From contig CAVPNL010000009.1 of assembly GCA_963706575.1 (NCBI GenBank), forward strand, positions 32,001 through 96,000: DNA of 64,000 bases, read 5' to 3'. This DNA comes from an uncultured delta proteobacterium (GTDB lineage Bacteria > Desulfobacterota > Desulfobacteria > Desulfobacterales > JAHEIW01). Position 1 is the stretch's first letter, and the number at the start of each line of letters is the position of its first letter. Positions 33,001 to 34,219 of this stretch are shown piece by piece. The position numbers are program-made.

Positions 33001-34219
33001 CCACAACTTTTGAAGTCCAGCACCCGCCATACCTGGATGGTGACGACTGGTTCATGGTGATAGACGGGGTTGAATTGAAAAAGGTTGCCGGACCTGTCAC
33101 CTGAGCATTGATCGGATTGTCATCTGCGAATCAAACGCCCTTTATTGCAGCCACGGATATCTCAATTCCGTAATTCACAACATTATAATTAACGGGCAAA
33201 CTGGACAAGGCGGTAACGGGCCCAACGGGTTAAACTTTTCTTAATCAGCTTTCCCAGTACGCCCACAGTTGCTGCAATCGCCGCTTCGCCAGACTGCGAG
33301 TAGGAGTTAAGTTCTTAAACATCGCAGCTTGGCCAGGTCTTCCGCATAGCCGTATAGGTGCAGTCCTTTGCTTTCGACAATCATTTGACCGTCTTCGACG
33401 GCAATTTCTCCCGCCATGTATTCCTTTAGATTTTGAATGGCAGCCAGGTTGGCCGGAAACCCGTTCCACAAATCCCAGGACCTGAAATAAACAAAAAAAT
33501 TAAGGGTATTATCCTGGATGCGGGTATCAATCGACCGCAGGCAGGGCGGATCCAGCAAGGTGAGATCAGAAGGATGCGCGATTTGAAGTACCAATTGGTT
33601 GTTACGCTCGCCGAATTTTTTGTAAGTGTCAATCACCCACTCGATCTGGTTTAAATACAGCTGGCCGTCTTCTTCAAAAACAACCGTTCCGTCGACTTCA
33701 CGCTTATCGATAATTTCAGTATTGTCCGTTTGCCACCAATCGAGTTTATCGCCGGACAGCGGAACCTTTGTCAATCGTTCACCATACGTATACGATTCAC
33801 CGGGTTCCTTGCGTGCCGACATTAAGTATTCGATATAGGCGCGGTCATAGCCGGGCCCGCCGTAAATATAATCGTGTTCCACCGGATTGGGAATGCCGCA
33901 TGCCGGCGGAATGTCCGGAATCAGCGGATCGGTGCCGGGATGTTTTACATGACCCGTAAAATAATCATACTCCAATCGAGTTTGCCCCTCGTAGGATCCG
34001 CGATCAATAACAAAGCGCCGGCCGTGATCAAGGATATCATGAACCGCCTGAAACCATAAATCCGGTAAATCTCTTGCGTAAATGTTATGAATGTCCATTA
34101 TTAATTATTCCCCACCACAGAGTGCACAGAGCCCACGGAGATATTTTTTTTATCAAAAAATTTAAACTCTTTGGATTTTTCTCTGTGATCTCTGGGGTCT
34201 CTGTGGTTAAAAAAAATTA

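Follow-up and report, generated by a model that had tools for sequence, protein, structure and literature searches.

The gene of P0001 belongs to a type that hundreds of genomes from anaerobes list as plain thyA, yet it carries the marks of a hydroxymethylase and behaves towards FolA like a ThyX. Textbook de novo dTMP synthesis follows one of two routes: ThyA together with FolA, or ThyX. The clade of P0001 appears to work like a thymidylate synthase in the economy of the cell, lies outside TIGR03283, and has an active site that, judged by its residues, resembles that of a hydroxymethylase. In the genomes that carry it, P0001 is very probably the essential and committed enzyme of de novo dTMP synthesis, taking the place of ThyX or canonical ThyA. 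New here are the Asn-Gln pair in place of Arg126/127, an Asp where E. coli has Leu143, the absence of a C-terminal lid, and a distribution uncoupled from that of FolA. Already known are the clade members that PMC9012536 includes in its ThyA alignment and tree without discussing them in its ThyA passages.

The gene, its genome and its family

The window (the whole stretch of DNA that was analysed, 64,000 nucleotides) holds P0001 as a 263-aa ORF with a ThyA fold. The features of the locus are:

33307-34098, minus strand: ThyA-fold P0001, Asp143-type, of the Asn-Gln ('NQ') clade; no other thymidylate synthase is recognisable in the genome
33667-33768, minus strand: insertion of ~35 residues (residues ~111-144), the mark of the 263-aa subtype; short types match residues 3-110 and 145-263 separately
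34099-34216, no strand: spacer between gyrB and the P0001 gene; a dispersed repeat in the form of a long imperfect palindrome (fold z -4.2)
34217-36673, minus strand: gyrB, upstream on the same strand (TIGR01059 above cut-off)
36670-37788, minus strand: dnaN, overlapping the gyrB start (TIGR00663 above cut-off)

The first-pass annotation had placed the gene directly behind dnaN-gyrB, and that is where it lies, 118 bp from gyrB with dnaN before it. This position recurs: gyrB is found at most 1.5 kb from the gene in 28 of 30 close loci and in three of four more distant ones. In the 30 best loci, identity to P0001 is 80-92%, against 45-76% for the C-terminus of GyrB, and among the 150 order matches listed it is 71-92%. 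An orthologue 84% identical to P0001 occurs in a cultured folate-maker, named by its source Desulfatibacillum aliphaticivorans.

The spacer palindrome was considered as a dedicated element and rejected as such: it is a copy of a dispersed intergenic repeat, with 47 blastn pieces across the genome and 58 genomic copies of its 16-base core (0 in a shuffle). A scan for promoters and terminators at the locus stayed at chance level. A recent foreign origin of the gene was also rejected, its GC of 0.48 being that of the genome. Two tandem RdgC-like genes (38079-39236, minus strand) lie directly upstream of dnaN, and dnaA is absent among the ORFs listed around them. Elsewhere in the window, 22940-29068 (plus strand) encodes a 2042-aa secreted protein which by eye reads like a bacterial alpha-2-macroglobulin.

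The source genome is 91.8% complete and 6.4% contaminated. A PF00303 search of it returned the P0001 gene as sole match, and PF02511 (ThyX) returned none. By tblastn with two queries each, canonical ThyA gave no hit at E<=1 and ThyX nothing better than E 0.03. The earlier statement that the genome has neither ThyX nor canonical ThyA is thus borne out, and P0001 is the one thymidylate synthase that can be recognised in it. No thymidine kinase was found in this genome, and none scored over cut-off in the five genomes tested. The genome does have one stand-alone, full-length FolA, on a different contig.

P0001 belongs to the PF00303 superfamily (38.7 bits; gathering score 24.3). A repeated profile scan reproduced the nearly full-length TIGR03283 match reported before (E 1.6e-26, 93.1 bits, residues 5-254), its position below the curated cut-off of 174.55 bits, and the weak match of the bacterial thyA models to the C-half only (E of at least 3.5e-8). 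Among the 89 + 50 relatives scanned, none reached the TIGR03283 cut-off, the best scoring 124 bits; the cut-off was passed in two control genomes, and by nothing in 121 sampled Thermoplasmatota genomes.

Methanogen-type references were taken from one viral locus (170.7 bits on TIGR03283) and its database relatives, which are named Methanothrix, Methanocrinis and Methanosarcinales and are mostly Methanotrichaceae-like; TIGR03283 was scored for the viral query only. In a 104-row tree, P0001 falls in a clade of 79 rows (support 100/99) that is separate from the methanogen-type rows (98/93) and from canonical ThyA, with the archaeal members placed inside the bacterial part of the clade. The P0001 clade is a sister clade of the methanogen enzymes in an archaeal-like branch, and is mostly bacterial and viral. 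The label 'methanogen/archaeal-type' given earlier therefore keeps its archaeal-like half and loses its methanogen half, both on the sub-cut-off score and on the tree that was then lacking.

Within the clade, a 40-row tree nests the 263-aa Desulfobacterales type in viral rows (99/96) and separates it from the short type of ~218 aa, which occupies the same place behind gyrB. An AU test rejected the grouping of the two types (p 0.001), for a group that was named after the first tree had been seen. The simple reading is a putative in-place replacement of the gene by a phage copy.

PMC9012536 includes four clade members in its ThyA alignment and tree (S1 Data, Fig 13D), apart from the archaeal rows, and the ThyA passages of that paper mention neither the clade's residues, nor ThyX exclusion, nor FolA. 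The word 'Desulfo' occurs nowhere in PMC2826268, and the relevant passages of PMC5954106 and PMC5654409 hold nothing on this clade. No study of the clade was found in the open-access literature, which lacks most subscription papers and with them the older work on the methanogen enzyme.

Other archaeal-like rows were seen alongside. A second archaeal-like bacterial ThyA clade, in Omnitrophota (L269-L278), keeps the Arg pair and has Asp143 and an RSRD motif. Rows from Thermoplasmatota (L146, L147, L149) group with the methanogen enzymes. Two archaeal viruses, L176 (IMG/VR) and L266 (Methanobacterium virus PhiF1), encode a methanogen-type thymidylate synthase in which Glu takes the place of Leu143.

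Distribution and the near exclusion of ThyX

A set of 301 Desulfobacterales genomes, at least 90% complete, was searched for the family, ThyX, canonical ThyA and FolA. The family occurs in 212 genomes, ThyX in 84 and canonical ThyA in 12. The family alone is present in 194, ThyX alone in 66, both in 18 and neither in 23; canonical ThyA is present in seven of these 23. If the two were independent, 59 genomes would be expected to hold both, although a Fisher P overstates the exclusion since kin within the order are not independent. The first-pass annotation had said that the enzyme excludes ThyX: near exclusion holds in this larger sample, and strict exclusion does not. The family is the sole synthase candidate in 191 of the 301 genomes, or 187 after removal of four weak rows. 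Tiered by E-value, the 212 rows comprise 150 of the 263-aa type (36 families), 14 intermediate ones, 44 of ~218 aa, which are without the insert, and the four weak ones, one of which is an intein-bearing paralogue.

That paralogue (L047:1480-3249, plus strand, genome G078) is 589 aa long, with an intein-like insert in the conserved YTYG motif that by eye has a Cys start, an Asn end and an endonuclease-like middle. It has Asn at the Asp169 position, a flavin-hydroxylase marker according to the part of PMC13326640 that treats these residues, keeps Asn177, and is without the His207/Tyr209 motif. HAD-like and then ParB-like ORFs, named by eye, follow downstream. Many family representatives of 540-680 aa may also carry inteins.

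The same pattern was seen in two further sets, both selected by request for 90% completeness, so that near exclusion of the family and ThyX extends over three phyla. In Dehalococcoidia (96 genomes), the clade occurs in 20 and ThyX in 77: both are present in 6 (16 expected), the clade only in 14, ThyX only in 71 and neither in 5. Among 71 Omnitrophota genomes there are eight carriers of the NQ clade; ThyX is present in one of the eight, and the clade is the sole candidate in seven. Double-domain ThyX proteins of ~470-550 aa were also noticed in G023, G045, G186, G210, G232, G253 and others, and in several Dehalococcoidia.

A GTDB scan found at least 598 stretches with relatives. The best 80 of them come from Desulfobacterota/Syntrophales, Dehalococcoidia, Omnitrophota, Planctomycetota, Actinomycetota and others, and three of these 80, in a ranking against an archaeal first query, are archaeal. 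IMG/VR yielded 187 viral stretches, and the viral loci inspected carry replication and nucleotide genes. Cultured phages gave no close match (best E 6e-6), and plasmids no close match to P0001. No partner gene is common to the 80 GTDB loci or to 80 viral loci, the neighbours varying by phylum and among phages; the three genes conserved beside the gene in Dehalococcoidia gave no tblastn hit in the source genome. In the viral loci (L213, L223 and relatives), a QueE-like radical SAM gene, named by eye, lies nearby in 19 of 80, and a ~468-aa ORF of unknown family lies near the gene in 19 of 80.

The active site and the uncoupling from FolA

Residues are numbered as in E. coli ThyA unless a P0001 number is given. 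From the alignment rows, the features of the active site are:

33784-33792, minus strand: Y103-T104-Y105, where Tyr105 is E. coli Tyr94; Y103 and Y105 are invariant in alignment A1
33595-33600, minus strand: N167-Q168, replacing the trans-subunit phosphate ligands Arg126'/Arg127'
33541-33552, minus strand: D183-P-P-C186, with the catalytic Cys146 and an Asp at C-3 (E. coli Leu143, T4 hydroxymethylase Asp145)
33472-33483, minus strand: R206-S-W-D209, with Arg166, Ser167 and Asp169 kept
33448-33450, minus strand: N217, which is Asn177, the dUMP-specificity residue; invariant
33352-33360, minus strand: H247-L-Y249, which is His207/Tyr209

The retained residues are Tyr94, Cys146, Arg166, Ser167, Asp169, Asn177, His207 and Tyr209, with Arg21 in most cellular rows; the YG of the profile aligns with Tyr146 of L. 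casei chains and Tyr94 of E. coli chains. The earlier remark that PPC and RSxD are kept was correct, and overlooked that Arg126/Arg127 are lost, that Leu143 has become Asp, that there is no C-terminal lid and that FolA is uncoupled from the gene.

Asn-Gln stands for Arg126'/Arg127' in 314 of 314 clade rows (30/30, 120/120, 4/4, 80/80 GTDB and 80/80 viral). The register of N167-Q168 may shift by one against the methanogen rows, and there is no Arg pair either way. Two of the four phosphate arginines (21, 126', 127', 166) are present, and Arg41, Arg188 and Lys244, near-invariant in the clade, may be candidates for compensating the loss. The catalysis sections of PMC6005164 describe loss of Arg127' alone as the first natural case and report that even a conservative change of Arg126' impairs catalysis; the passages on phosphate-binding arginines in PMC6514825 and PMC5981203 confirm their roles.

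At position 143, all 234 cellular clade rows and 77 of the 80 viral ones have Asp; the 111 methanogen-type rows all have Glu, and the nine canonical rows all have Leu. C186 is followed by L187, at the His147 position, and then by the family-typical R188. After Tyr209, 14 residues remain in P0001 against a median of 55 in canonical ThyA, which leaves no C-terminal lid. In the Trp80/83 stretch, Trp occurs in 0 of 154 Desulfobacterales-type rows, by a crude test that finds it in only five of nine canonical rows.

The AlphaFold model of P0001 has the thymidylate synthase fold (pLDDT 96.5) and shows the ~35-residue insertion modelled confidently. Foldseek found no close solved relative (TM-score 0.56-0.65), and the N-terminal half has no PDB sequence match. 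In structural alignment all matches at Z>=8 have the TS fold. The best is the phage dCMP hydroxylase AfhB (Z 22.8, rmsd 2.2, 203 aligned), followed by MilA at Z 21.0, above canonical ThyA (Z 19-19.6, ~204 aligned), although this ranking may reflect a shared short C-terminus.

Hydroxymethylases supply the nearest reference for these residues. PMC6400193, in its sections on the signature, describes the Asp at C-3 as the water-activating residue of hydroxymethylases, with D145N inactive and Leu in thymidylate synthases, and notes that hydroxymethylases are without a C-terminal tail. For T4 dCMP hydroxymethylase, the mechanistic passages of PMC6400193 and PMC6841964 state that this Asp activates water and blocks hydride transfer, and that the missing tail is a major difference from ThyA. 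According to the comparative part of PMC13326640, position 143 correlates with a hydroxymethyl or a methyl product, and D169N/N177D mark 5hodCMP synthases. P0001 has the acidic residue at C-3 and no tail. It does not have the Ser/Thr two before Tyr94, an element derived for dCMP enzymes: Tyr103 is there, and Thr104 is one before Tyr105. The AfhB-type markers D169N and N177D are also absent, as D209 and N217 are kept. The kept Asn177 points to a dUMP-type substrate, and the kept Asp169 argues against a flavin-dependent 5-hydroxy-dCMP synthase type. A Kuttervirus TS-like protein, which presumably has a hydroxymethyl-dUMP role, has the same pair of Asp at C-3 and Asn177.

The fate of the folate was approached through FolA. 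As set out in the folate passages of PMC9931769 and PMC6400193, ThyA yields dihydrofolate and is coupled to FolA, and hydroxymethylases and ThyX release H4folate. Among the 191 sole carriers in the order, 22 have a full FolA, 74 a short DHFR-like match only and 95 none; among 64 ThyX-only genomes the counts are 7, 26 and 31, with the boundary between full and short set after the E-value gap was seen. PF00186 occurs in none of the 96 Dehalococcoidia genomes, thus in none of the 20 carriers. In Omnitrophota, all 32 genomes with a canonical-type ThyA match have FolA (Leu143 confirmed in each of the eight inspected). None of the eight NQ-clade genomes has it, nor any of the 21 that gave no match, nor any of the 10 with the second Asp143 clade, which keeps both arginines (Asp143 checked in 10/10; ThyX in one of seven tested). 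Together the Asp143-type Omnitrophota have FolA in 0 of 18. Since the second clade lacks FolA and keeps the Arg pair, the lack tracks Asp143 and not the Asn-Gln change.

None of the 190 clade loci has a DHFR close by, against 24 of the 28 canonical ones; these 24 are from related Thermoplasmatota, and the remaining four, from Desulfobacterales, have none nearby. FolA is uncoupled from the P0001-family gene. This matches the hydroxymethylase marks, because hydroxymethylases release tetrahydrofolate.

Among Desulfobacterales with only canonical ThyA, a full FolA is present in 0 of 7 (L037-L040 of family f55, Leu143 checked, and G095, G166 and G194). A short DHFR-like protein, which could be the missing reductase, is present in six of the seven.

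Other reductases were also sought, with profiles that included none for E. coli-type FolM. No MJ0208-type reductase scored over cut-off in 80 genomes, with ferredoxin-domain hits only, and no PTR1-type reductase did so in five. PF01872 found only RibD-length proteins, in four of five genomes. A FolP-reductase fusion is not evident, the FolP frames being mostly 274-345 aa and some up to 416. FolP itself is present in 58 of 60 genomes tested, so the carriers need some dihydrofolate reductase for de novo folate synthesis. The relevant part of PMC1971073 describes such dihydrofolate reductase genes as still unidentified, and bacteria without a recognisable DHFR as mostly users of ThyX; the corresponding passage of PMC4046663 gives Desulfotignum as having no DHFR gene and a thymidylate synthase whose type is unstated.

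Candidate reactions and comparison with known systems

From the conserved residues, Cys186 would attack dUMP at C6, and CH2-H4folate would hand its methylene over to C5 with the help of Tyr105, Arg206, Asp209, Asn217 and His247/Tyr249. Less surely, the final step would proceed without hydride transfer from the folate. The exocyclic methylene would most likely be quenched as in the hydroxymethylases, with release of H4folate, because of the Asp at the Leu143 position and the missing lid. A partner enzyme might then reduce 5-hydroxymethyl-dUMP to dTMP; alternatively, a non-folate reductant such as reduced flavin may enter the open pocket and give dTMP directly. As no dihydrofolate would be produced, FolA would be dispensable. 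We see about an even chance that the chemistry of P0001 is folate-sparing in this sense, with the methylene transferred, H4folate released, and the reduction coming from a second step or an outside reductant. The wider proposal falls just short of even: the archaeal-like ThyA branch (the NQ clade, the second Asp143 clade and probably the methanogen enzymes) would form a third, folate-sparing route to dTMP, with hydroxymethylase-type transfer, release of the tetrahydro-pterin and non-folate reduction by way of 5-hydroxymethyl-dUMP and a reductase, or by flavin. Desulfobacterales would depend mainly on this route and would trade it with their phages.

The strongest competitor, which we regard as a serious possibility though somewhat less likely than not, is that a divergent protein carries out the usual ThyA reaction. 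Both carbon and hydride would come from CH2-H4folate, FolA or an unrecognised reductase would recycle the dihydrofolate, and the rule on Leu143 and the lid would fail for the archaeal-like branch. Several observations favour this reading and tell against a folate-sparing one: a full FolA is encoded in the source genome; FolP in 58/60 indicates that carriers make folate and hence own some dihydrofolate reductase anyway; canonical-only Desulfobacterales also live without a full FolA (0/7); and no second enzyme or partner reductase accompanies the gene in the loci examined, even in the 80 viral ones. Every dUMP-handling residue and Asp169 are kept, so P0001 does not have D169N, the flavin-hydroxylase marker; the conserved Trp208 might take over shielding; and the Ser/Thr-x-Tyr part of the hydroxymethylase signature is Tyr-Thr-Tyr in P0001. 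The methanogen enzymes share the acidic C-3 residue, yet a passage of PMC9931769 cites dTMP formation by crude Methanosarcina extracts, without purification of the enzyme. On the other side, a methyl product is hard to reconcile with a water-activating Asp that never varies and with the lack of a lid. FolA is no commoner in carriers than in ThyX-only genomes, and within one phylum two separate Asp143 clades have FolA in 0/18 against 32/32 for Leu143 enzymes, although thyA and folA frequently move as a pair, and the 32/32 may reflect such co-transfer and few independent events.

Two further readings fare much worse. P0001 could be a true dUMP hydroxymethylase, or maker of another modified pyrimidine, of phage origin and serving base modification, with dTMP coming from another unrecognised enzyme. 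The hydroxymethylase signature, the 187 viral stretches with the 263-aa subtype nested among viral rows, and the 18 of 301 genomes that keep the gene beside ThyX would fit. We nevertheless hold this very unlikely, given the near exclusion with ThyX in three phyla, the fixed place behind dnaN-gyrB, the lack of any conserved hypermodification partner in the neighbourhoods, and the need for another synthase with exactly the same distribution. Least probable, and largely refuted, is a methanogen-family (TIGR03283) enzyme acquired from archaea, perhaps from syntrophic partners. TIGR03283 is indeed the best NCBIfam match over the full length, and the YTYG motif, acidic C-3 residue and short tail are held in common. 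All 139 relatives scanned are below its cut-off, however, and the clade is separate in the tree; archaea, three of the best 80 of at least 598 stretches, lie inside its bacterial part; and methanogen rows keep the Arg pair in 111/111, as do Methanosarcinales-like rows in the PMC9012536 supplement.

If the folate-sparing reading is true, this would be new chemistry for thymidylate formation. If the ordinary ThyA reaction is true, there would be an unrecognised dihydrofolate reductase, and the rule by which base-modifying enzymes of phages are annotated would fail. The archaeal section of PMC9931769 describes ThyA biochemistry in archaea as scarce because of unusual C1 carriers; the orthologue in D. 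aliphaticivorans, whose host makes folate, makes the question testable with ordinary folates. The clade also offers a natural enzyme in which the two trans-subunit phosphate arginines are missing; solved structures come no closer to it than a TM-score of 0.65.

Compared with known systems, the clade shares with methanogen-type thymidylate synthase (TIGR03283) the full-length match, the short archaeal-like architecture, YTYG, the acidic C-3 residue, the absent lid and Asn177. It differs in its score (93 bits against 174.55), in Asn-Gln for Arg-Arg, PCLR for PCM and RSWD for RSHD, in the SKG before His207, and in being found mostly in bacteria and phages. With canonical ThyA (PF00303, TIGR03284; E. 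coli, L. casei) it shares the fold, Cys146, Tyr94, Arg166, Ser167, Asp169, Asn177, His207 and Tyr209, and Arg21 in most cellular rows. Unlike canonical ThyA, it has other residues in place of Arg126/127, Leu143 and His147; the Trp80/83 stretch contains no Trp, the C-terminal 40 residues are absent, and there is no coupling to FolA.

The phage pyrimidine hydroxymethylases (T4 dCMP hydroxymethylase and dUMP hydroxymethylases) have the same Asp at C-3 and no C-terminal tail, as described in the signature sections of PMC6400193, and MilA is similar in structure (Z 21.0). In contrast to them, the clade has Tyr and not Ser/Thr two before Tyr94, and P0001 is a chromosomal core gene that nearly excludes ThyX, with no hypermodification partners found. 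AfhB, a flavin-dependent dCMP hydroxylase (PDB 9IQU/9IQC) of the 5hodCMP synthases treated in part of PMC13326640, is the best structural match and indicates that a TS fold can hold flavin. AfhB differs from P0001 in D169N and N177D and needs O2. The hosts of the P0001 family are presumably anaerobes. The VAAP-clade thymidylate synthase, in the account of its active site in PMC6005164, likewise shows natural loss of a phosphate-binding arginine, only Arg127' in its case, whereas the P0001 clade is without both trans-subunit arginines. The four P0001-clade rows that Chadwick et al. 2022 (PMC9012536) show in their ThyA tree are from Desulfobacterales and are set apart from the archaeal rows.
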